Source: a virus
Lineage: Duplodnaviria > Heunggongvirae > Uroviricota > Caudoviricetes
Reading direction: 5' to 3' (one strand)
Virus record (IMG/VR): IMGVR_UViG_2690316243_000006
Length of the DNA: 39,562 nucleotides
Position 1 is the first letter of the stretch. Each line of letters opens with the position of its first letter. The position numbers and the translations under genes were made by a program. The notes beneath the pieces were generated by a model that worked only from the letters and a program-made list of their open reading frames with translations, was not told the DNA's origin and ran no database searches. This document shows, piece after piece, positions 483 to 38,286 of the stretch.

Positions 483-1220
483 TCATTCACTCTCTTTCAA
501 ACCAGTTTTAACTGTTTGTGGTTTTGGGTAAGGCTGGACTTTGAATAGCTTTGTGTTAAGGCGTTTTCTGGCTCTCTTGTCCAGAAACCGGATGTAACGA
601 AACTGACGGAATTTATGAACACTGGCTCTGTCGATATTAGCCCGCAGATGTTCACCTCGCTGTCCTCCTCGTTTGATTGCATTCTTGCAAATCTCGTGAT
701 ACCACTCGCCATCAAGTTCATAGAATGTTGTTTCATGACTGCCTACATAATCAAAATTGCTTGCCTGGTACACGACACCAAGACAGCCACAACGCTCATC
801 TGCAAACGACTGAACCCACTGCACCTGCGGATAAAGTTGTCTGATTAGTTTGAGCGCGTAACTGATTGCCCTTGATTCGGAGTTTCTCGGCATACAGTCA
901 TGCAGCCATAACCGGTTAAGCTCCATATATTCGCGGTTCTGCGTGCCAGTTACGACGCGTGCACCATTGTTTGGATTAAGGGCATAACCCCATTGCATTA
1001 CGCCAACCAGCTCCCGTTCTGAAAATATGCCCAGATGAAGGTAGGAATTATTTACGAAACGATGGCTGTAATGTTTATTGACGACGACCAGCCGGGCCAG
1101 CCAGCAACTTATTGTCTCAACCCGTAACTCACGGGAGCCATAACCGACGATATTGTCGTTATAGTGAATAAGTTCAGGCGTGCTGATGATACGGGATGTA
1201 ACTTGCTTTCTGTTCCCCAC
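483..1220 (-). CDS. mom: Mom-like DNA modification protein (start tentative: GTG at 1220 preceded by AGGAAA; the open frame extends to 1415)
   Basis: Position at the phage right end immediately downstream of, and overlapping, a Com-like zinc-finger gene, as in Mu com-mom; assignment is by synteny, not motif recognition. Confidence 0.55.
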
Positions 1221-7346: not shown

Positions 7347-7906
7347 TAAATAGTCTCCTCTTCATGGCTGTTTGCATAAACGTAAATAAACGTCTGCCAT
7401 GCAGGCTTATAACGGTTCAGAATACATTCCAGCGCACCGCCTTCATAAATACGCAGCGGCGTGAGAATATCATCCAGCACATTCATATTCCGGTAGCCGG
7501 TTTCACTGTTAATCGTGACAATACTGACCCACTGCGAATCCGGTGAGGGCTGAATGTCAATCTGATAACCAAACTCCGCCGCAAACCGGATATAAAATTC
7601 ACGGTTCAGCGAGGGCTTCATCCGGTATTTATTTCCGGCATAACGCTGTCGCTCCGTGAGGGTGGCTCCGGCCATATCACACTCGGGAAGCCCGAGATAA
7701 CGCTCCCAGTCTTCCAGCAGCAGGCGCGACGTGTCAGGGAAACGCTCGGCAAGCAGCTGTTTACCCGTCCAGGATACACGCGCTGTCGAATGACTGAGGC
7801 CCAGACATAATGATGCCAGTACGGATGACGGACGCTTGTCCCATGCCAGCCCGTCAGGCAGTAACTGCAACAGGGCGCGCTGATGCGGGGTCAGGGTTAC
7901 AGCCAT
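7346..7906 (-). CDS. Tail protein (Mu gp48 / P2 gpI-like)
   Basis: 186 aa, between the baseplate J-like gene and the tail fibre gene; assignment by synteny. Confidence 0.6.
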
Positions 7907-8979
7907 GTGATTTCTCCTACCGTCAGCAGCTCACTGTCTCCCGCCTGAACTGACGTCAGCGGACTGCGCACTTCAAAATCCTCCAGATTTTTCACCCCTG
8001 CCACCGCCCGCCAGAAAGACGACGGCAGAACCAGACCGCCGGGCCGGGATTCGTTATACAACAGGTCGGTCAGCGCCTGTTTTACGGCCGCCTGATTCTC
8101 CGGTGTTTTCGGGATGATCCTGATGCTGAAGGGCACCGGCTTATTGGTCAGTTTAAACACGGTCACCGTCGGCCCCAGAGGCTGTCCGACAGGCTGGCCG
8201 GTCGCCGGATCATCATGACTGCGGATATAATCCGCCACCCGCTGAACATCACCGTCACCGGGGAAAATATCCGGGTTATTATCCTGAACAAACGTTACCC
8301 CCACGCTGCCCGCCTGCGGCCATTCCGGGCGGCACCATGCCCGCGTCACGCCCGGCACTTCACGCGCCCAGCGTTCAAAATCATACTGCGTGCCGCCGGA
8401 CGGTGGATTCTGCACCCGGAAAACCAGACGGGAAAGCAGCTCCGGCACGGTTTCCACATCCGCACCACCGGTGATCCCCGTTCCGGTCACCGTGGCCGTC
8501 TGGTTGATCCCCGCCTGCGGTGTGATAAATGTCAGTTTTGTCCCTGCCGGGGCATTCCCCGCACGACCGGCACTTTCGGCTTCCACACTGACATTCAGCG
8601 TACCGGCCTTACCGGTCAGGGAGGTGGTGATACGGTAAACCACGCCATCACTTCGCTGGAGAAGCACACCTTCCTTGATCCCCGCATCCGTGGTCAGCAT
8701 CAGCTGAACCGGCCCGTCCCCCCGAGAGGCAGGCTTACGCATGACGCCCCAGAATGCACAGTGTTTCAGCAGTTCGGCTTCATCGGCTTCGGTCGGGATG
8801 ATCTGACGCGCAATCCAGGCCAGATGCTCATGCTCCTGAGCAGATAACCCTGCCTGAGCGTAAGCAATGGCATTCAGGGTGGTTTCATTCACACCCGGCT
8901 GCGAGCCGGGCAGGCGCTGGCTGATATCCTGCTGTGTCTGCGTGATTAACTGTGCCAGCGGTAAAGGCTGATAAGGCAT
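7897..8979 (-). CDS. Baseplate J-like protein (Mu gp47-like)
   Basis: 360 aa; position and size match the baseplate J family. Confidence 0.7.
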   Translation of the reverse strand: MPYQPLPLAQLITQTQQDISQRLPGSQPGVNETTLNAIAYAQAGLSAQEHEHLAWIARQIIPTEADEAELLKHCAFWGVMRKPASRGDGPVQLMLTTDAGIKEGVLLQRSDGVVYRITTSLTGKAGTLNVSVEAESAGRAGNAPAGTKLTFITPQAGINQTATVTGTGITGGADVETVPELLSRLVFRVQNPPSGGTQYDFERWAREVPGVTRAWCRPEWPQAGSVGVTFVQDNNPDIFPGDGDVQRVADYIRSHDDPATGQPVGQPLGPTVTVFKLTNKPVPFSIRIIPKTPENQAAVKQALTDLLYNESRPGGLVLPSSFWRAVAGVKNLEDFEVRSPLTSVQAGDSELLTVGEITWL

Positions 8980-28989: not shown

Positions 28990-29412
28990 TCAGAAAAGCC
29001 GGGGCTGCGTGCGCTCCTGATGCAGGCGACGCTGGTTGCGGATAACGGAGTAAATCTGCGTCTCTGACATCTGGTAGTGGCGGCGCAGGGTTTCAATTTT
29101 TTCGCCCTGGCTCCAGCGGGAAAAAATTTCATTATTGCGCAGTTCGGTGAAAAGGGATTCACCGACCGGGAGATAATAACCACGCCCGCCCATGTACCCG
29201 GCCTGTGCGGCTGCAACCTTACGGGCAAGCATTCCCGCCTGAGCAGGTTCAATCCCCTGACGGTGCAGTTCAGCACTGATCACATCAACCAGGTCCCGCA
29301 GCGTGCCGGGCCAGTTCTTTTTCAGCTCATCATCAGGAATATCATCCAGACGGTCAATCAGCGCGTGCAGCTGTTCGCTGTCACCAAACATGCTCATCTG
29401 TGTTTCAGCCAT
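28990..29412 (-). CDS. Mor/C-family transcription activator (likely the late-gene activator by position upstream of lys)
   Basis: 140 aa; C-terminal HTH ...IETLRRHYQMSETQIYSVIRNQRRL resembles Mor/C. Confidence 0.7.
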   Translation of the reverse strand: MAETQMSMFGDSEQLHALIDRLDDIPDDELKKNWPGTLRDLVDVISAELHRQGIEPAQAGMLARKVAAAQAGYMGGRGYYLPVGESLFTELRNNEIFSRWSQGEKIETLRRHYQMSETQIYSVIRNQRRLHQERTQPRLF

Positions 29413-29443: not shown

Positions 29444-29476
29444 GTTTAAAATAAAAATCCCGCGCTGTGGCGGGAT
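29444..29476 (-). terminator. Intrinsic terminator immediately after gemA
   Basis: Minus-strand hairpin ATCCCGC/GCGGGAT followed by UUUUUAUUUUAAAC. Confidence 0.55.
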
Positions 29477-29482
29477 TTGGGG

Positions 29483-29995
29483 TTAACGGGGGAATGATTT
29501 TTCATACAGCCTGCAAACACGCTCATAACTCATCACTGCACGTTCCGACATATCCAGGGCTGCCAGCATTTTGCGGCGGTGCCAGCGTTTGAGACGCTCC
29601 AGCACATCAGAGGCCAGCGCGGGTTGTTGCTCCAGCCACTGCCAGTTAGCCACACCTTCGCCGTCGTTCTGCGCGGCCGTCTGCGATTTCACCCAGCGGT
29701 TAAGGGCCGTTTCCCCGCCATCAGAGATAAATCCCTGCCGGTGCATCACTTTCCAGATGGCGCGAATTTTGGCGGTCACCGTACCCGGTTTTAAGGCCCG
29801 GTTAACCGGCTTCTGACGCACTTTAAAACCGCGTTTTTTGAAAACATCCAGCACGCGGGATAACTCACCGGGTGACATATCACGGCAACTGGATTTGCCG
29901 GTGGCTGCCAGCAGCGCGGATGTATAGGTATCATGGTCAAGCTGTAGATCGCGTTTTGCGACATGTATTAAGGTAATCAGGGAAGCGCGATTCAT
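29483..29995 (-). CDS. gemA: GemA-like protein (Mu gp16 family)
   Basis: MNRASLITLIHVAKRDLQLDHDTYTSALLAATGKSSCRDMSPGELSRVLDVFKKRGF matches my recollection of the gp16 family N-terminus. Confidence 0.65.
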   Translation of the reverse strand: MNRASLITLIHVAKRDLQLDHDTYTSALLAATGKSSCRDMSPGELSRVLDVFKKRGFKVRQKPVNRALKPGTVTAKIRAIWKVMHRQGFISDGGETALNRWVKSQTAAQNDGEGVANWQWLEQQPALASDVLERLKRWHRRKMLAALDMSERAVMSYERVCRLYEKSFPR

Positions 29996-30011
29996 TATCG
30001 TGGCTCCATAA

Positions 30012-30037
30012 AAAATGGGCGGTGTTACCGCACCGCC
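30012..30037 (-). terminator. Intrinsic terminator or attenuator just upstream of gemA
   Basis: Minus-strand hairpin GGCGGTG/CACCGCC (30018-30037) followed by CAUUUUUUAU, ending about 15 nt before the gemA RBS. Confidence 0.5.
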
Positions 30038-30065
30038 ATGTCAATTAACATAAAAGGAAAAATCT

Positions 30066-30305
30066 ATGTCAGATATAAAAAATGCACTTGATGTTGCCGC
30101 ATTCACAATGGCTGGAAATCTTATGGTAACCCTGTTCGATAAGGGGCTGATTTCCCGTGAGGAGGCAATACATATTATCAATCTCGCTCAAAAAAACTCT
30201 ACCCCGGAAAATGCAGAAGATATCCAGGATGGCTCATATATTAATACCGACTGGCATTTCGACAATCTCCGGGCCTGTATGGGGATTACCGCTGAAAAAG
30301 ATTAA
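30066..30305 (+). CDS. Hypothetical protein (79 aa) on the opposite strand to the early operon
   Basis: AAGGA RBS 8 nt before the ATG; AT-rich island; 3' end overlaps the convergent minus-strand ORF by 20 nt. Confidence 0.4.
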   Translation: MSDIKNALDVAAFTMAGNLMVTLFDKGLISREEAIHIINLAQKNSTPENAEDIQDGSYINTDWHFDNLRACMGITAEKD

Positions 30306-30571
30306 AAATTTTTGCATAATGTTCAGATGTAAGAATTGCTGAACCATCAACACCGAGCCTGCGGCGAACGTATTCCTCGCGGGCTATTTTATTATCCAGA
30401 GATACAGCATCCTTAATCAGGTTAATCTCCCGCTCCATTATCAAAAGGGCTTCTCTGGCTGCAAGATTTTCTTTTATCGCATATTCGATAATGTCCCGCA
30501 TACGTTCAAGCATGCCGATTTTAGCCAGTTCTTCGTCGATAGATTTAGGCGCAAATTTGATTTCTTTTTCC
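30286..30571 (-). CDS. Hypothetical charged helical protein (about 95 aa; start taken at MEKEIK)
   Basis: Start overlaps the stop of the upstream zinc-ribbon ORF; Glu/Lys/Arg-rich. Confidence 0.45.
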
Positions 30572-30574
30572 ATA

Positions 30575-30718
30575 TTATTCATCCTCACAATTTATACATG
30601 CAGTGTCGTCGCCCATATCGCAGTGGTTACATTTTATCTCACCACAATGTGGGCACTCTTTCAGATACTCCGGGTCCTCATTTCCACAGGTGGGACATTC
30701 AACAATTTGCTCATCCAT
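30575..30718 (-). CDS. Small zinc-ribbon protein (47 aa, four CxxC motifs)
   Basis: MDEQIVECPTCGNEDPEYLKECPHCGEIKCNHCDMGDDTACINCEDE; ATG 2 nt after the stop of the upstream gene; not in the supplied ORF track (under 60 aa). Confidence 0.45.
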   Translation of the reverse strand: MDEQIVECPTCGNEDPEYLKECPHCGEIKCNHCDMGDDTACINCEDE

Positions 30719-31043
30719 TATGTATCCCCTGTAATTCCGGCAAGGCCGAAAGATGGCACCAGTGCGTCACCTGTCCGTCCTCATCTTCAAGGCAGGCTCC
30801 GGTTTCTTCATCAATAAAAAAGCCTTCATACCCCATATGGCCGATGCGCAGTTCCTGTTGGTCACCATACTGAACAATCAGCACGACAGCCTCCATATCA
30901 GGCGGAAATGCGTCATCCAGTGAATGCCAGGGATAACCGCGCAAATCCCCGAAATAAACGCCGGTCAGCGTTCCGCCACAGAGCGGCATTCCGGCGGCAC
31001 ACACAAGAGGTTCATCTGATTCAACAAATAAGGTCGTTATCAT
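30711..31043 (-). CDS. Hypothetical strongly acidic protein (110 aa)
   Basis: About 19 Asp/Glu against very few basic residues; early-region position. Confidence 0.5.
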   Translation of the reverse strand: MITTLFVESDEPLVCAAGMPLCGGTLTGVYFGDLRGYPWHSLDDAFPPDMEAVVLIVQYGDQQELRIGHMGYEGFFIDEETGACLEDEDGQVTHWCHLSALPELQGIHNG

Positions 31044-31591
31044 GGCGTTAACTCCCGTAATACAGCGTCCTCGGCAGTCCGGCGACGGTAATAAACTGCG
31101 TGAGCAGAATGTTCAGATATTCCAAACTTTTCGCCAATTTCCCGGAATGACAGACGGCGTGGGTAATCGGAATCACGCAGCGCACGTATAAGACGTACAT
31201 CATCATCAGATATGCGCGTGCCGGGGCGTAACTCTCCGCACTTTGTTAATCCAGCACCAATCATTCCTGCCCGACATCTGACAGAATCTTTATTACGTCC
31301 GAGATATTCTCCCATTTGCTGGCAGGTCATTGTTCTGGCATTTTTTCGAATAAACTTATCTTCATCAGGTGTAAATCTTGGGTGTTTATATTTCAGTAAC
31401 TCCGGGTATGAACTGCGCAATACACCAGTCCGGTTATATACAGCCCAGACAGTTCTTTTTATTCTGGCAGCAATATCCTTAACCGGGGTGGATGAATAAA
31501 GCGCAATCAGCAGCGCATCTTCTTCAGGTGTCCACGGACGGACATGAGCGGGGGCGCGACCTTTTAGTCCCATGGGTTGTAATTTCATCAT
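31040..31591 (-). CDS. Putative DNA-binding protein with Myb/SANT-like N-terminal motifs and a C-terminal HTH
   Basis: RPWTPEEDALLIALY and FTPDEDKFIRKN motifs; C-terminal FREIGEKFGISEHSAHAVYYRRR resembles Mor/C or sigma region-4 HTH. Confidence 0.55.
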   Translation of the reverse strand: MMKLQPMGLKGRAPAHVRPWTPEEDALLIALYSSTPVKDIAARIKRTVWAVYNRTGVLRSSYPELLKYKHPRFTPDEDKFIRKNARTMTCQQMGEYLGRNKDSVRCRAGMIGAGLTKCGELRPGTRISDDDVRLIRALRDSDYPRRLSFREIGEKFGISEHSAHAVYYRRRTAEDAVLRELTP

Positions 31592-31594
31592 GCA

Positions 31595-32110
31595 TCACCC
31601 CCTGACTCGCTTTTCAGCAGCATAAAACTCATCAGACAGTATTTCGGTCATTTTCTGTTTTGCGGGTTTTACGCCGCACTGAAGGTAAATCACATCGTCA
31701 ACGCAGAACCACTTCACAGGGCCAAACAGGATTGCCGAGAAATCAATACCCAGCCAGAACAACAGCGCATCGGTTCTGGCATACGTGACGGGCGAATATT
31801 CACGCCACAGACTGTTCAGTTCATCAGAGGCAACACGCAGGGTTTTAGGGATACGTGATGTGCGCGGTGTGCAGCTCCAGCCATTCGACGCAGTCGGTTT
31901 TCGCCATAAGTCGCGATGAAAAGGATATTTGTCCTCCGTAAAACGCAGTCCCTTAAAGCAAAATCCACTGATACCGGATACAAATACCGACCGGCACGCA
32001 ACATTCAGCACGGCCTCAAGGCGTTTTGCCTCATCCTTAACTTTCTGGCAGTCCTGCTGGTATTTTTGCCACGCAGCCAGCGCGGAAGGGTTTGATGTTT
32101 TAAAGAACAT
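31595..32110 (-). CDS. Hypothetical protein (171 aa)
   Basis: Tightly packed in the early operon; no recognisable motif. Confidence 0.5.
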   Translation of the reverse strand: MFFKTSNPSALAAWQKYQQDCQKVKDEAKRLEAVLNVACRSVFVSGISGFCFKGLRFTEDKYPFHRDLWRKPTASNGWSCTPRTSRIPKTLRVASDELNSLWREYSPVTYARTDALLFWLGIDFSAILFGPVKWFCVDDVIYLQCGVKPAKQKMTEILSDEFYAAEKRVRG

Positions 32111-32643
32111 TACGCCACCTCCGCAGATATCCCTGCCGATGCCGCTGTCCGGTCAATAATCAGGTAACGCAGAACGCGCCCGGTGATGTTCCAGCCGCTT
32201 AAGCCGCAGATAATGACGCCCAGGCGAATGTCGATATACGCCATCACAAACTGGGGCACGCCTTCTTTCATGGCCTGCTCATCAACTTCAGCCACCACAT
32301 AAACGGTTTCGCAGGTCAGTACTCCCTGAGCAAATTCCCACGCCATCGACGGAATATCATGCCCCTCAATCCACGGCAGGGATTTTCTGAAGCTGCACCA
32401 CTGAACATCATCAGCCGCACCTTCCTGGCTGCATTTGCGACGAACCGCCTGCACCGGGCGGGGACGCGGAATATCATAAAAACCGTTACGGTCCGTCAGC
32501 ACCCCGGCATCGACCGCATCACGCAGAAAATAAACCATGGAGGATAGCGGCATATTCATTTTTTCTGCCAGAGAACGACTGGTCAGACGGCCAGAAAAAC
32601 GCAGCCAGCTTTTAACCCCTTCAAGCACTTTTGCATCAATCAT
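32110..32643 (-). CDS. Hypothetical protein (177 aa) with a possible N-terminal winged helix
   Basis: LTSRSLAEKMNMPLSSMVYFLRDAVDAGVL is HTH-like; stop/start overlap with the neighbouring gene. Confidence 0.5.
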   Translation of the reverse strand: MIDAKVLEGVKSWLRFSGRLTSRSLAEKMNMPLSSMVYFLRDAVDAGVLTDRNGFYDIPRPRPVQAVRRKCSQEGAADDVQWCSFRKSLPWIEGHDIPSMAWEFAQGVLTCETVYVVAEVDEQAMKEGVPQFVMAYIDIRLGVIICGLSGWNITGRVLRYLIIDRTAASAGISAEVA

Positions 32644-33286: not shown

Positions 33287-33817
33287 TTATTTATTCAGTC
33301 CGGCGTCCTGTTCAAAAGGCTCGACATAAAAACTTTCAGCGCCTTTATTCACCTTTATACCGGCAATGCCCTTCACCGCATCTGGCTCCGCCAGGACAGC
33401 TTGCTTATTCACTTCCTCTTTCGTGCGGATGAAGCGCTCAAGGCCCATACGGCGCAGCATTTCAATCACGCCTTCCACATCACGGCTGACGCTGCATGAT
33501 GGCGTTCCCAGCCGCCATGACACCGTTCCGGTGGTCAGATTGGCTGTTTTGGTTTCGCCGCCGTTCGTCAGCTCATTGCGGTTGGTTTTACACCAGTCAT
33601 GAATCCCCTTAAAAAGCACTTTGATTTCTTTTTTAAGGTTTTCAATCTGCGGCGTATAACGGGCGGTGATTTCTGCCACTTCGTCATTCATCGCCGTTTC
33701 CAGGCGTAGTGCCTCACGCTGCATATCCCCAAAGCGTCGGATATCGCGGCTGACCTCTTCACGGGTCTGCGGTGCTGCCTCGGCTGCGGCCTTTAATTTT
33801 GTAACGCGTTTAGCCAT
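33287..33817 (-). CDS. gam: Host-nuclease inhibitor Gam (Ku-like DNA-end-binding protein)
   Basis: MAKRVTKLKAAAEAAPQTREEVSRDIRRFGDMQREALRLETAMNDEVAEITARY...TANLTTGTVSWR...RFIRTKEEVNKQAVLAEP closely resembles Mu Gam; 176 aa. Confidence 0.85.
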   Translation of the reverse strand: MAKRVTKLKAAAEAAPQTREEVSRDIRRFGDMQREALRLETAMNDEVAEITARYTPQIENLKKEIKVLFKGIHDWCKTNRNELTNGGETKTANLTTGTVSWRLGTPSCSVSRDVEGVIEMLRRMGLERFIRTKEEVNKQAVLAEPDAVKGIAGIKVNKGAESFYVEPFEQDAGLNK

Positions 33818-34945: not shown

Positions 34946-35173
34946 TTAGCTGACTTGTTTCGCACCAACAGAACGGCATATTCCGCTGTAAACTTCTGTC
35001 GCACCTTCGCGATCAAGTCCGGCAGATATCACCATTCGTGTGCGGTCATTAAATTCAAAAAGTAAATCGCCACATGCTTTATTTTCGGCCAGTGAAATCA
35101 CCTTCACGTTATCGAAATTAACCAGGTAAAAGCGTCCGTAAATATCAGGAATATTAAATACCGCCATAATCAC
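34946..35173 (-). CDS. Small protein at the Mu kil position (75 aa); function not established
   Basis: Immediately downstream of the B-like gene, where Mu carries kil; size and position only. Confidence 0.35.
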   Translation of the reverse strand: MIMAVFNIPDIYGRFYLVNFDNVKVISLAENKACGDLLFEFNDRTRMVISAGLDREGATEVYSGICRSVGAKQVS

Positions 35174-36102
35174 ACCTGTGAGAGTAATTCAGGGTTGGTA
35201 TAAACCTCTTTAAAGGCCGCATTAATATGTTTTTCTGTCAGCGCCGCGCCTTCACCGCTGGCGGTGAGCCACGCCTGGTTAAGCGTATGTGTCAGAACAC
35301 GTAATGCTCCCGGCTTTTCAGCGATAGCCTGCATGACGGCCAGCTCGGCCTCACCACTGATACCCCATGCCCTGGCAATGGCCAGCACATCCGCCTTTTT
35401 GGCCTTGCGAAGTTGTTTTGTACGGGCAAGACGGCTGAACAGGCGCGATAAATCATCAAAGGCGCGGCGTCCACCTTTAAACAATCCGCGCGGGTTACCA
35501 ATAAGCACCATCCCGATCCCCGTGGCGTCCTGAATTGCCCGGAGTTGCTCCAGACCGTCAATACCAAGATGATCCGCCTCATCCACAATCACCAGTCCAC
35601 GCGTTCCCGTCAGGCGACGGCGGATGGCGCGGGATAATGCCCCTTTGTTCGCGCGGGTGTAATCAATCCCCAGCGCATCGGCCAGCTCCAGCAGACACTC
35701 CGTGACGCTGGAGTGCGCGGGTGACAGGGTGATCATCCAGGTGTTTGGTTGCTCCTGGCAGTAATTACGGGCAGTGGCCGTTTTACCCACACCCGGTACG
35801 CCCACAATAACGTTAATACAGCCCATCAGGCGAACCGCCTGAAACAGTGCGCGCAGCTCCTGGACTGTCTGAGTTTCCACAAACTGCGGCGGTTCCGGCA
35901 GTGCGCTTTGTTTATTCCAGTTCTCATACCAGGAGCGCAGGGAAGCAGCCACAGCGGCGTTATCGCCTTTATATTTCCCCTTGCGGAAAGCCGATAATGT
36001 GCCGTCGGAAATTCCCGCCTCTCTGGCGATGGCATACTGCGTCAGCACGCCGCCATCAATAAGTTCATCAATGGTCTTGATTACATCGTTTATATCGGTC
36101 AT
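35170..36102 (-). CDS. B: MuB-like transposition target-DNA activator (AAA+ ATPase)
   Basis: 310 aa; Walker A GVPGVGKT and Walker B LVIVDEAD; directly downstream of the transposase gene. Confidence 0.85.
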   Translation of the reverse strand: MTDINDVIKTIDELIDGGVLTQYAIAREAGISDGTLSAFRKGKYKGDNAAVAASLRSWYENWNKQSALPEPPQFVETQTVQELRALFQAVRLMGCINVIVGVPGVGKTATARNYCQEQPNTWMITLSPAHSSVTECLLELADALGIDYTRANKGALSRAIRRRLTGTRGLVIVDEADHLGIDGLEQLRAIQDATGIGMVLIGNPRGLFKGGRRAFDDLSRLFSRLARTKQLRKAKKADVLAIARAWGISGEAELAVMQAIAEKPGALRVLTHTLNQAWLTASGEGAALTEKHINAAFKEVYTNPELLSQV

Positions 36103-36177: not shown

Positions 36178-38286
36178 TCAGGCCAGAGGGTCATTTTCTT
36201 TTAATTTCGCTTCGAGCAACTGCAATCCCCGCTGGAAATTACGCTCGTATTCTTCATCAGGCTCATCATCAACGGCAGGTTGCTGAACGGTCACCGTATT
36301 ACCCACAGGGCGGTATATGTTTTCCAGCCAGGGCTCCTGCGGCTTGTGCTCCAGCACGTTGACAACCTCATCCTCGGCATCACGGATTTTTTCCTCTGCG
36401 CGTTTACGCATACCTTTAAGGCGTTGCTGCTGTTTGTAGTATTCCGCGCTGACCGGGAAGGCTTCGCGTTTATTGCCGTCCCATACCGCCTCGCAAATCA
36501 CGCTGCCATCCGGGCGACGTACGGTAATTCGTTCGGCATCATGAATGTCATAGCTGATAAGCACCTTGCGGCCATGCTCATCACTCAGCTCGGGCGCGTA
36601 GTAAATATTATTCAGCCAGCGTATTTCACAGCGTCTTACAGGGCGTTCCACCATTGGCCGGAACATATCCCGCAGCTCAACATCGGACAGCCATTCAATT
36701 TCCGTGTCCTCTTCTGCCAGGCGTTTTTTTCTGAACTCCGCCGGGCTGTAATGCTTCCCGTTCGGCTTCATGGGTAATTCATCGTGCGGCCGGTTGTTGT
36801 ACCACTCAACGCCATCACGAATGGCATCAATCAGTTCAGACCAGGACGGTAAATCACGCATCGCTGACTGTTGCCGGGCGTTCAGCCGTTTGCCCTGTTG
36901 CAGGGCGGTAAATGCCGAGCGTAAATCGCGGTTGGTTTTGCGTAACGTCTCGCGATCTGCACCTTTCCCGAAATAGGTGCGGTATTTACGGGCTATACGC
37001 ATCGGTAACGTGCGGTTAAGCCGTTCGATAATGCCCCGTCCCTGCGGGTTACCGGCAATCCCGGTTGGGTGATTAATCCCCAGTCGCGGCAGGATCCCCA
37101 CAACTTCCTTATCCAGGATGTCGGCGGTTTCCCCGGAACCGTTATCCGAGTAATACAGAAACGGTTTGCCGTGATTACGAATACCGTACTGTATGGCACC
37201 GGCTACGGCGAAAACATTTTCAGCCAGGTCAAGGCTCCAGCCCACCACAAAGCGCGTGCCACCGTCGATAACAAAGGTCACTTCCGGTGCAAATGGCCGC
37301 CCGTGAACCGGGTGCCTGCATTTCAGCTTCATGCCGTGACCGTCACCAATCCAGACATAATTCACCGGCATTCTGGACCAGTCGCGGCGCGTGAATCCCT
37401 CAAGCTGGCGGTATTCACTGCCGGTCACCCGGCCTTTTTGTTTCACCACTTCCGGCAGTTTCTTCATTGCGCGGCGGATGGTGTCGTAAGACGGCATGAT
37501 ATCGAGCATATAAGGCTCATCAGCGTGCCGGTGCTGCCATTCAGCGACAAAATCCTCGTAAGCCTCGGTCATTGGTCGGCCGTTTGACTGGCGATACTGC
37601 GCCAGAAATTCGGGCAGCCAGTTAATATCTTCGGCTTTTATTTCCTGGCGCTTACCAGGTGCCAGCAAAAGCAGGCGTTCAGCGGCGTTCTGCGCCTTGT
37701 TAAAGGCTGCAATCCAGCGTTTCAGCGTGATTTCACTCAACGCACGGCTGTTTCCCTTTTTGGCGTTCGCCGTCTCAACCATTGCCACAATGCGCTCGTC
37801 CAGTTGCGAACGTGCCAGGTTGTCAACGATAAACCGGATAGCCTTCGCACAGCTGAAACCAGGTTGTTGCGCGACTTTCAGAACTTCGCTGACGATCGCG
37901 ATTCGTGCATCAGCCACCTGGCGCTGGTTTTCAGTCAGGGCATTGAGGCGTTCGAGCATCAGTTGTGGTGATCCGCGATATGCCTCCACCGCATCAACCA
38001 CGGCAGGTGAGCGCCTGGCCTTTGTCACTACCGGAGCCGGTGATTCATCGGCTTTTTGCGTCATCAGTTGCAGGGCATAGCGTTCGCGTACTGCCTGCTG
38101 AACAGTTAAAGGCAAAGCCCCTATTTCACACTCTAAAACTTTCCCTTTTACCCCTGGTTTTAGCCGCGTTTTCCACGCTTCCCTCTTTGCTTTTTTGTGC
38201 AGACCTGCCAAAGAACTAGGTAGGTCACTGAATGAAATCAATTCAGTCATTGCAACCCACATATTTCCTCCGCGCACGTCGTTCAT
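36178..38286 (-). CDS. A: MuA-like DDE transposase (start probably ATG at about 38250)
   Basis: 702 aa; N-terminal LPSSLAGLHKKAKREAW domain shared with the c-like repressor; follows ner. Confidence 0.85.
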   Translation of the reverse strand: MNDVRGGNMWVAMTELISFSDLPSSLAGLHKKAKREAWKTRLKPGVKGKVLECEIGALPLTVQQAVRERYALQLMTQKADESPAPVVTKARRSPAVVDAVEAYRGSPQLMLERLNALTENQRQVADARIAIVSEVLKVAQQPGFSCAKAIRFIVDNLARSQLDERIVAMVETANAKKGNSRALSEITLKRWIAAFNKAQNAAERLLLLAPGKRQEIKAEDINWLPEFLAQYRQSNGRPMTEAYEDFVAEWQHRHADEPYMLDIMPSYDTIRRAMKKLPEVVKQKGRVTGSEYRQLEGFTRRDWSRMPVNYVWIGDGHGMKLKCRHPVHGRPFAPEVTFVIDGGTRFVVGWSLDLAENVFAVAGAIQYGIRNHGKPFLYYSDNGSGETADILDKEVVGILPRLGINHPTGIAGNPQGRGIIERLNRTLPMRIARKYRTYFGKGADRETLRKTNRDLRSAFTALQQGKRLNARQQSAMRDLPSWSELIDAIRDGVEWYNNRPHDELPMKPNGKHYSPAEFRKKRLAEEDTEIEWLSDVELRDMFRPMVERPVRRCEIRWLNNIYYAPELSDEHGRKVLISYDIHDAERITVRRPDGSVICEAVWDGNKREAFPVSAEYYKQQQRLKGMRKRAEEKIRDAEDEVVNVLEHKPQEPWLENIYRPVGNTVTVQQPAVDDEPDEEYERNFQRGLQLLEAKLKENDPLA

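Follow-up and report, generated by a model that had tools for sequence, protein, structure and literature searches.

In this work we ask whether a small AT-rich block in the early region of a Mu-like viral genome, in which one gene faces the otherwise unidirectional early operon, represents a module acquired from elsewhere or a part of the phage's own inheritance, and what the facing gene might do. The window, that is the whole stretch of 39,562 nucleotides analysed here (Caudoviricetes record IMGVR_UViG_2690316243_000006), had been described in an earlier note, made without database searches, which considered an opposite-strand gene in a Mu early region to be unusual and suggested an acquired module. 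The first of these statements does not hold, since Mu itself carries the opposite-strand gene gp15. With fair confidence we regard the block as the counterpart, in the window, of genes 13, 14 and 15 of phage Mu, conserved early genes that are termed "semi-essential" and of which gene 13 encodes the zinc ribbon; this reading includes a model in which gp15 acts in the prophage state. As judged from synteny, the gene 13-14-15 arrangement is already known from Mu and is not an acquired oddity, which removes a false lead: the block is standard Mu backbone.

The features of the block are collected in Table 1. Its layout is largely as previously read, comprising a + strand ORF with a good ribosome-binding site, a 20-nt convergent overlap with a minus-strand ORF of 95 aa, and a 47-aa zinc ribbon; one correction applies to the 95-aa ORF, whose end had been placed at 30571, the last base of its ATG, rather than at 30573. 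The block is indeed AT-rich, with a GC content of 41.1% compared to 50.5% for the early region and 53.7% for the whole window. The Mu copies of these genes are likewise AT-rich (46-48% GC vs 55% for gemA), and it is the neighbouring ORFs of 183 aa and 110 aa, ahead of the zinc ribbon, that are the genes without a Mu counterpart. The PGAP annotation of an E. coli prophage that is 99.9% identical calls the 79-aa and 95-aa genes and skips the zinc ribbon.

Table 1. Features of the gene 13-14-15 block and its gemA flank, in window coordinates.
Feature	Position	Strand	Description
gp15-like ORF	30066..30305	+	79 aa, ATG start; opposite to early operon
gp14-like ORF	30286..30573	-	95 aa
gp13-like zinc-ribbon ORF	30575..30718	-	47 aa
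Overlap of gp14-like and gp15-like 3' ends	30286..30305		20 nt
RBS of gp15-like ORF	30054..30058	+	AAGGA, 7 nt upstream of ATG, read from sequence
Hairpin and T6 tract	30008..30037	-	terminator-like in early direction; 22 nt before gemA ATG
Exchangeable gene 15 cassette	30062..30327		homology break vs L019 and L017
A7 run within gp15-like ORF	30190..30196	+	site of rare frameshifted variants
gemA	29483..29995	-	Pfam GemA 1.8e-28; divergent from gp15-like

The two genes on the early-operon strand were readily assigned. The zinc ribbon, which carries four CxxC motifs (CPTC, CPHC, CNHC and CINC) and a net charge of about -12, shares 88% identity over 41 aa with residues 20-60 of Mu gp13 (formerly E14; tblastn E = 7e-17) and belongs to phrog_5584 (3.1e-26), while Pfam returned sub-threshold zinc-ribbon matches only. 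Its pN/pS of 0.08-0.10, at a pS of about 0.7 in comparisons with Mu and L015 (L numbers are our handles), is low, indicating strong purifying selection. This very acidic, eight-cysteine ribbon is highly conserved and is routinely overlooked by automated annotation. The gp14-like protein shares 49% identity over 94 aa with Mu gp14, formerly E15 (tblastn E = 5e-21), and matches phrog_6075 (5.4e-44), with homologues in Vibrio and Photobacterium recovered at 97-98% hhalign probability; its pN/pS is 0.33-0.55, and its AF2 model is all-helical (pLDDT 86.9). The ATG of the zinc ribbon overlaps the stop codon of the upstream 110-aa ORF by 8 nt, and the zinc ribbon is joined to the gp14-like ORF through TAA, one T and ATG, a junction identical in Mu. 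As read from this junction, the gp13-like and gp14-like genes are translationally coupled on the early-operon strand, as the earlier note had proposed.

The assignment of the + strand ORF to gene 15 (PGAP entry WP_001280088; phrog_32893, 1.3e-45) required a different route. In a tblastn search of the phage collection the window protein gave no match to Mu gp15 at E <= 1, so its homology to Mu gp15 rests on profiles: hhalign matched 52 N-terminal columns of the window-type and Mu-type profiles at 97.4% probability (E = 1.1e-11), with 19% identity between the window protein and Mu gp15 in the alignment, and intermediate alleles connect the two types. The family comprises roughly 20 clusters of small proteins with two conserved motifs, one N-terminal and common to the aligned members, the other (DWHLDNL) found in many of them. 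HMMER recovered family members down to E = 1e-30, and when 1.84 billion proteins were searched with the profile, 35 matches at E <= 1e-3 were obtained, about two-thirds of them 47-92 aa long. Additional loci were sought with a degenerate DNA pattern for DWHLDNL, which returned five new loci, of which three are what chance would give. The window protein is acidic (pI 4.5) with three predicted helices and an AF2 model of pLDDT 76.6. A membrane protein was considered and rejected, the maximum Kyte-Doolittle score over 19 residues being 1.27-1.54, below 1.6.

In Mu the order of elements is the gp13 zinc ribbon, gp14, the opposite-strand gp15 overlapping gp14, a hairpin, and gemA. Ten diverged Mu-like lineages, which range from E. 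coli to Vibrio and Photobacterium, have genes 14 and 15 tail to tail with a GC hairpin after them, and synteny was observed in L015-L020, L024-L027, L029, L036, SfMu, D108, L041 and L042, with E. coli, Klebsiella, Photobacterium and Vibrio as hosts of the Mu-like prophages concerned. The length of the overlap varies (62 nt in Mu, 20 nt in the window, 2 nt in L029, 38 nt in L041 and 26 nt in L042), and in the Vibrio sequence L042 the pair is not next to gemA. From its recurrence, the combination of gene 14, gene 15 running towards it and a GC hairpin is a unit conserved from Enterobacteriaceae to Vibrionaceae.

Several lines of evidence bear on whether gene 15 is translated. In its own frame, which has zero stop codons, pN/pS is 0.22-0.57 and lower than in any of the other five frames in all five pairs compared; the shadow forward frame gave 0.36-0.75, with stops. 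The frame is open across the interval in 10 of 10 lineages, in nine of which it is the longest ORF there; in every other lineage inspected it has its own ATG and RBS, though the surrounding DNA is unalignable, and the ORF is intact in all 12 complete close relatives. Five rare variants (P0005 and P0007-P0010, with one or two member sequences each) shift frame, at the A run in P0007 and P0008 and further downstream in P0005, P0009 and P0010, and retain only the first 43-55 residues. Programmed -1 frameshifting at A AAA AAC (30190-30196) was rejected as an explanation, because the run is not conserved (A6G at this position in close relatives and no run in other lineages) and the variants, besides being rare, originate at more than one place. 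Judged by these patterns, gp15 looks like a genuine, widely conserved protein-coding gene on the opposite strand, and this adds a small point to the annotation of Mu, as gene 15 has evolved in the manner of a real gene. Current records differ in this respect: RefSeq NC_000929 places Mup15 at 7896-8162 on the opposite strand, overlapping gp14; the current GenBank record of Mu (AF083977) has dropped gp15 in favour of a forward ORF, Mu_54; and gene 15 is unannotated in D108. The coding evidence, as measured by substitution patterns, argues against the replacement of gp15 by Mu_54.

The gene 15 slot is at the same time a site of exchange. Compared with L019 and L017, the window shows 88-92% identity as far as 30326-30328 and 96% identity starting at 30061; within the cassette interval of Table 1 no DNA can be aligned, and a Mu-type gp15 of 24% amino acid identity takes the place of the window allele. 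Despite this swap, gp14 residues 1-82 stay window-like in the L019 comparison. These breakpoints suggest that the AT-rich slot is swapped as a discrete cassette among prophages that are otherwise 92-96% identical. Between Mu and D108, genes 14 and 15 differ together. In the plaque-forming Yersinia phage vB_YpM_3, gp14 was kept and gene 15 was lost by deletion between CTGAT repeats, from which we take gene 15 to be accessory.

The terminator-like hairpin that had been described as bounding the block is present, with a seven-pair stem at 30018-30037 followed on the minus strand by CATTTTTTAT, and a folding energy of -13.3 kcal/mol (z = -2.6); terminator-like sites in the region as a whole (4 found vs 3.3 expected) are not above chance. 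A hairpin occurs at the equivalent position in every lineage examined (Mu, D108, L015, L024, L029, L041 and L042), and in L015 a different stem sequence keeps its pairing through compensatory changes. Only the window lineage (T6) and L041 (T8) have a strong U tract; it is weak in Mu, D108, L029 and L042, so that the hairpin is probably an inefficient terminator in Mu and most other lineages, which lack a good U tract. GenBank AF083977 annotates a semi-early gemA promoter over the hairpin region, and synonymous divergence in gemA is lower in codons 1-40 than in the remainder, a pattern that is consistent with an embedded element; the flank of a recombination event, instead of a promoter, could also produce it. 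On the strand of gp15, no sigma-70 consensus promoter was found upstream of the gene in the window, Mu or L041, the sole weak + strand promoter-like site in the window being at 29905-29934, about 130 nt upstream (9/12), and no terminator was found downstream of gp15.

Profile and structure searches, which the earlier note had proposed for the three proteins, led to the Mu and PHROG families described above and gave no functional clue. None of the three was assigned a function from Pfam, NCBIfam, PADLOC, the PDB or, for gp14 and gp15, fold comparison. PADLOC gave no match at E <= 0.1, Pfam and NCBIfam gave no relevant match and no toxin-antitoxin family, and PDB sequence searches with all three proteins returned nothing significant. 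Foldseek against the PDB likewise returned nothing significant for gp14 (best E = 0.46), and for gp15 its best PDB match had E = 2.2, with nothing significant in BFVD, where the notable row was Mu's own F-134 ORF. Rfam identified no family in the block (two sub-threshold matches both lie outside it), a repeat scan gave short matches only, at chance level, and a literature search by the names Mup13-15 returned nothing on the Mu genes. The block is conserved Mu backbone to which these searches attach no function; the earlier note had said that conserved backbone with a known function would count against acquisition, and the first half of this is what we find.

How might such a gene be used? Lytic transcription of Mu has been described as rightward only (PMC2582627), and gene 15 falls outside this classical scheme. 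The early transcript from Pe, which runs rightward, would not permit its translation, and a leftward promoter would therefore be needed in the conserved flank formed by the hairpin and the 5' end of gemA. When Pe fires, RNA polymerase would cross about 270 nt of untranslated sequence antisense to gene 15, and collision together with RNA duplex formation would then silence gp15, while the hairpin may attenuate read-through into gemA-mor or cap, at its 5' end, an independent gemA transcript. A gene silenced upon Pe firing would most likely encode an accessory protein of the quiet early operon, for example in the prophage state, and gp15 itself may be a small acidic helical module that binds protein or oligomerises. 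If expressed in lysogens, gp15 would represent a previously unrecognised prophage-state function at the boundary controlling entry into gemA-mor. The suggestion in the earlier note that convergent transcription regulates the gene 14/15 pair is a plausible one. A bolder version, to which we assign a low probability, is that Mu-like phages possess an ancient, self-contained switch built from gene 14, gene 15 opposite it and the hairpin. It would combine a prophage-state role of gp15 (e.g. exclusion or host modulation) with shut-off of gp15 by Pe and with a gate on gemA-mor that would affect commitment to the middle and late programme, and the fast turnover of gene 15 alleles would be the mark of an arms race.

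These proposals must be weighed against other explanations of the same locus, of which two dispute that the gp15 protein matters. The main product could be RNA, with a leftward cis-antisense RNA or transcriptional interference limiting early read-through into gemA-mor and thereby timing the middle/late switch, and the peptide being secondary. The conserved convergent overlap with the early operon, the hairpin met directly afterwards by early transcription (with a T6 or T8 tract in some lineages) and the roughly 270 nt over which early RNA is untranslated in the window would all suit such a role; however, an RNA-only role has no need of constraint at the protein level or of conserved motifs, the nucleotide sequence is freely swapped between alleles, and the pair lies apart from gemA in Vibrio L042 and has no Rfam match, all of which leads us to regard this explanation as unlikely. 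The + strand ORF might be a shadow, the interval being in truth a forward small ORF (Mu_54) or an untranslated leader or promoter of gemA-mor. The updated GenBank record of Mu, with Mu_54 and a semi-early promoter in place of gp15, speaks for this, as do the second-lowest pN/pS of the Mu_54 frame, which shares its wobble positions with gp15, the failure to find a promoter for the + ORF and the rare frameshifted variants. Yet the forward frames hold stops in every pair, their ORFs are short, variable and mostly begin with TTG or GTG, and the window has no Mu_54 equivalent, while the opposite-strand ORF is open, has an ATG and RBS where inspected and encodes a protein family with conserved motifs; a shadow ORF is in our assessment quite unlikely.

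Two further explanations accept the proteins and differ as to their origin or partnership. The foreign, moron-like module recently acquired by a prophage, as the earlier note would have it, draws on the base composition of the block (41% GC vs 54% for the window) and on a slot that is swapped between close relatives and absent in one phage. This much of the original suggestion stands, in that gene 15 moves as a cassette and the Yersinia phage lacks it, but the remainder is largely refuted by synteny: the three genes have identical order and orientation in Mu, SfMu, D108 and prophages of four genera, the Mu copies are AT-rich too, and the genes that are really missing from Mu are the 183-aa and 110-aa neighbours. 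We consider recent acquisition of the block very unlikely. An equally low probability is given to gp14 and gp15 being a functionally coupled pair, whether as effector and neutraliser, in the manner of a toxin-antitoxin system, or as a lysogeny factor and its lytic antagonist. The two genes do remain neighbours across the range from E. coli to Vibrio, also where gemA lies elsewhere, and Mu and D108 exchange both genes together, but between the window and L019 a 24%-identical allele replaced gene 15 beside a gp14 whose residues 1-82 remained window-like, a plaque-forming phage has gp14 without gp15, and neither PADLOC nor toxin-antitoxin families gave a match. The reading that we retain is that of Mu genes 13, 14 and 15, with gp15 as a probable prophage-state protein.

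Comparison with known systems offers additional insights into this reading. At the level of the protein, the gp15 core motif L..L..KG.I(S/T)..E(A/G) and a predicted helix-turn-helix hairpin resemble the SHOCT domains (Pfam SHOCT-like_DUF2089-C and SHOCT_2). Two or three gp15 family members show weak matches below Pfam thresholds, with a best E-value of 1.4e-3; the window protein has no match, and those of 2 of 20 relatives, at E = 1.4e-3, stay under the Pfam gathering score. At the level of the gene, phage morons and lysogenic-conversion cassettes, such as lambda bor and lom, share with gene 15 a small, AT-rich and dispensable gene in an exchangeable slot, whose transcription would, in gene 15, be independent of the surrounding operon; gene 15 differs from them in that no promoter or terminator of its own was identified and in that its slot is invariably occupied by members of one protein family, not by cargo of unrelated kinds.

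A parallel in layout is found in the Pseudomonas Mu-like phage Fc02, in which olg1 and gene 10 overlap on opposite strands (PMC9936078). In this transposable phage one of the overlapping genes is active in the lysogen and the other belongs to the lytic early operon; gene 15 likewise overlaps an early-operon gene. The exclusion activity of Fc02 has been shown by experiment, the Fc02 overlap adjoins repressor and ner rather than gemA, and the proteins are unrelated. The closest relative of the block is Mu itself. Two extra genes precede the zinc ribbon in the window, Mu gp13 has a 13-residue N-terminal extension that is missing from the window protein, the T6 tract is a feature of the window, and the window gp15 allele is of the DWHLDNL subtype, with an N-terminal domain homologous to that of Mu gp15 at the profile level. 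In order, orientation, coupling and 3' overlap, however, the block matches Mup13-Mup15 of Mu (NC_000929; E14, E15 and the leftward ORF F-134), and in both phages the hairpin stands just before gemA.

The AT-rich block that immediately precedes gemA in the early direction, comprising a zinc-ribbon gene, a 95-aa gene and a small gene facing them on the opposite strand, is already-known Mu backbone of unknown function. Each of the sequence features described in the earlier note (ORFs, convergent overlap, CxxC motifs, translational coupling, AT-richness and hairpin) is found in the window, with the end of the 95-aa ORF moved by 2 nt, from 30571 to 30573; GC content is 41.1% in the block and 53.7% across the window. 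The early operon of this Mu-like prophage occupies the minus strand, and all three products of the block fall into PHROG families of unknown function (see table). In tblastn searches of a phage collection the zinc ribbon matched the last 41 residues of Mu gp13 (old E14) at 88% identity (E = 7e-17), the 95-aa protein matched Mu gp14 (old E15) at 49% identity (E = 5e-21), and the plus-strand ORF gave no direct match to Mu gp15. The plus-strand ORF and Mu gp15 are bridged by antisense ORFs at the same position in the Mu-like prophages L016 (79 aa) and L018 (92 aa), and profiles of the window-type and Mu-type proteins match over their N-terminal 52 columns (97.4% probability, E = 1.1e-11). In Mu (RefSeq NC_000929), gp15 shares 62 nt with gene 14, and 70 nt separate it from the gemA start. 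Opposite-strand genes had been regarded as unusual in a Mu early region and as suggesting an acquired module; since Mu itself has gp13, gp14, an opposite-strand gp15 and the hairpin in the same order and orientation, this is the canonical Mu arrangement.

Features of the block and its surroundings (window coordinates unless a phage is named)
Feature	Coordinates	Strand	Description
Transposase A candidate	36178-38286	-	ORF of expected length
Transposase B candidate	35170-36102	-	ORF of expected length
Gam	33287-33817	-	Early operon
gp11-like	32110-32643		Pfam
SANT/Myb-like ORF	31040-31591	-	183 aa; phrog_323
110-aa ORF	30711-31043	-	phrog_6925; weak DUF551 match
Zinc-ribbon (gp13-like) ORF	30575-30718	-	47 aa; four CxxC motifs; TAA stop 1 nt 5' of next ATG; phrog_5584 (3.1e-26)
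gp14-like ORF	30286-30573	-	95 aa; 3' end overlaps + ORF by 20 nt; phrog_6075 (5.4e-44)
gp15-like ORF	30066-30305	+	79 aa; AAGGA 7 nt 5' of ATG; phrog_32893 (1.3e-45)
Hairpin before gemA	30018-30037		7-bp GC stem, then T6 on minus strand; -13.3 kcal/mol, z = -2.6
GemA	29483-29995		Pfam, 1.8e-28
Strong intrinsic terminator	29455-29478	-	9-bp stem, U-rich tail; -13.5 kcal/mol, z = -4.5
Mor	28990-29412		Pfam, 6.7e-31
Mup15 (gp15)	Mu 7896-8162	opposite	88 aa; NC_000929
Mu_54	Mu 7960-8127	forward	55 aa; AF083977.1 annotation
D108 ORF	D108 554-913	-	119 aa; unannotated (GQ357916)

The lineage-specific additions relative to Mu are, rather than this block, the 110-aa and 183-aa ORFs between the gp12-like gene and the zinc ribbon, a position at which Mu has nothing; related locus L017 has two additional small ORFs in the same interval. 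A strong intrinsic terminator also occupies the 70-nt gap between gemA and mor, which overlap by 4 nt in Mu. In the window lineage a terminator-like hairpin thus lies on either side of gemA, and expression of mor may depend on read-through or a promoter of its own.

The coding status of gene 15 is of interest, since in the current GenBank Mu record (AF083977.1) gp15 has given way to a forward ORF, Mu_54, together with a "semi-early promoter", and the D108 record leaves the interval between gene 14 and gemA empty. Mu_54 lies in a forward shadow frame that has its wobble positions in common with gp15; the window lacks an equivalent, and the ORF is not kept across lineages. In ten lineages (the window, L003, L016, L018, Mu, L024, L029, D108, Photobacterium L041 and Vibrio L042) the opposite-strand frame has no interruption over the full length of the interval and extends into gene 14, and early-direction ORFs are shorter, variable and mostly begin with TTG or GTG. 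Every gp15 allele that was inspected starts with an ATG of its own behind its own ribosome-binding site, although DNA of different allele types is unalignable. Of the six frames, the one for gp15 has the lowest pN/pS (0.22-0.57) and the highest amino-acid identity in all five pairs compared, and it contains zero stop codons; the Mu_54 frame ranks second (0.36-0.75) and contains stops. Alignment bias does not explain this ranking, because two of the five pairs are gap-free. When 1.84 billion representative proteins were searched with a HMMER profile, 35 matched at E <= 1e-3, about two-thirds of them proteins of 47-92 aa. Aligned members share the N-terminal motif D(V/I/L)A(A/G)F..AGN.L..L..KG.(I/L)(S/T)..EA, and many have a C-terminal DWHLDNL.A motif; the window protein carries both, the latter as DWHFDNL.A. 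The 79-aa frame is kept in all 12 complete close relatives; in five rare variants, each represented by 1-2 member sequences, the frame shifts after residue 43-55. From these comparisons gene 15 is very probably a real protein gene, Mu_54 is likely a shadow ORF, and the current Mu record likely mis-annotates the locus.

Two of the frameshifted variants are altered at an A7 run, which in the window (30190-30196) forms an in-frame A AAA AAC heptamer, and the rest further downstream; programmed frameshifting at this run is unlikely, because other alleles do not conserve the run. In D108 (L038), an opposite-strand ORF with the gp15-family core motif lies within the 376-nt gap left between gene 14 and gemA.

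The proposal of an acquired module does not hold for the block as a whole, and Mu copies of it are also AT-rich (46-48% GC, against 55% for gemA), so that the low GC belongs to the module itself and gives no sign of recent import. What survives of the proposal concerns the gene 15 slot, which is a true hotspot of exchange. Compared with L019 and L017, related loci carrying the Mu-type allele (24% amino-acid identity), the window shows 88-92% identity down to 30326-30328, then 96% identity starting at 30061. The intervening 266 bp are unalignable and consist of the gene 15 coding sequence, 4 nt 5' of its ATG and 22 nt past its stop, the last including the final ~14 codons of gene 14. Mu and D108 are likewise 95-97% identical up to the first gene 14 codons and again from the hairpin, and differ across genes 14 and 15. 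A natural deletion between a pair of CTGAT repeats has wholly removed gene 15 from the Yersinia phage vB_YpM_3 (L040, MT374852; ~905-935), where TGTGTAAATT, the hairpin and gemA come straight after the stop codon of gene 14; gene 15 is thus dispensable for plaque formation. Two IMG/VR prophage remnants (L006 and L007) have a deletion junction within gene 15 at ~3447 (window ~30127), where the truncated gene is fused to coding-like sequence.

The order gp13, gp14, facing gp15, hairpin, gemA and mor is found in all enterobacterial loci examined; L036 ends inside gene 15, leaving only gp13, gp14 and gp15 visible. The gp15 family also extends to Klebsiella michiganensis, Photobacterium frigidiphilum and Vibrio mediterranei. 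In the Photobacterium and Vibrio loci the gp15 homologue converges with a 98- or 100-aa gene, overlapping it by 38 or 26 nt, respectively; these genes are gp14 homologues (hhalign 97-98% probability, E = 1e-11 to 1e-12), and a GC hairpin again lies beyond the gp15 start in the early direction. Since four other genes lie between the pair and gemA in Vibrio, the linked unit is gene 14, gene 15 and the hairpin, excluding gemA.

Terminator-like sites occur in the region at chance level (4 found, 3.3 expected), so the significance of the hairpin rests on its conservation. The same GC hairpin (GGCGGTG...CACCGCC) stands just 5' of the gemA ribosome-binding site in Mu, and the distance to the gemA ATG is 19-22 nt in the window, Mu, D108, L024 and L029. 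L015 retains the pairing with another stem sequence (GGCUGCGC/GCGCGGCC), and versions are present in L041 (with T8) and L042; a canonical U tract is confined to the window lineage and L041. The gemA "semi-early" promoter of AF083977.1 is annotated over this region in Mu. The hairpin could act as a partial early-operon terminator, as a 5' stabiliser of a gemA transcript, or both.

The zinc ribbon is extremely acidic (net charge about -12 over 47 residues, eight of them cysteines) and under strong purifying selection (pN/pS 0.08-0.10 against Mu), and is no part of the Vibrionaceae version. Its gene is routinely missed by automated annotation: PGAP skips it in an E. coli prophage 99.9% identical to the window, where the 79-aa and 95-aa genes are called, and misses it in two RefSeq E. 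coli prophages (L002 and L003). A 50-aa homologue (55% identity) is encoded by the Klebsiella phage Kpn BU9 (OR145793, 2501-2653), which is not Mu-like, just ahead of genes for exonuclease, ssDNA annealing and DNA polymerase.

Together, the new content is modest: comparative evidence on gene 15 and its probable mis-annotation in Mu, its linkage to gene 14 and the hairpin across Gammaproteobacteria, and an overlooked zinc-ribbon gene. Searches of Pfam, NCBIfam, PADLOC and PDB sequences found nothing significant for the three proteins, nor did Foldseek against PDB and BFVD. The gp14-like protein gives a confident all-helical model (pLDDT 86.9) and the acidic gp15-like protein (pI 4.5) a three-helix model (pLDDT 76.6); its sequence properties make a membrane protein unconvincing. 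Weak SHOCT-like matches in 2 of 20 relatives (E = 1.4e-3) are the sole functional leads.

The most economical reading is that gp15 would be an accessory protein made while the early operon is quiet. Genes 13 and 14 would be translated from the transcript of the early promoter, Pe, from which gp15 would be untranslatable, so that a leftward promoter would be needed in the conserved flank of the hairpin and gemA 5' end. No consensus promoter for gp15 was found. Synonymous divergence in gemA codons 1-40 (window 29876-29995) and their homologues is consistently below that of the remaining codons in pairs of enterobacterial loci (0.25 versus 0.64 between Mu and L024; 0.14 versus 0.46 in another example), which an embedded regulatory element or a recombination flank could explain. 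With Pe active, polymerases would traverse ~270 nt of untranslated antisense gene 15 sequence, silencing gp15 through polymerase collision and RNA pairing and exposing the early RNA to termination at the hairpin. Published parallels are offered as analogies, not evidence: Mu lytic transcription is described as rightward only (PMC2582627), a low level of early-region expression has been reported in lysogens, as has constitutive gem expression (PMC3820752), and in the Mu-like Pseudomonas phage Fc02 an opposite-strand overlapping gene has documented exclusion activity (PMC9936078).
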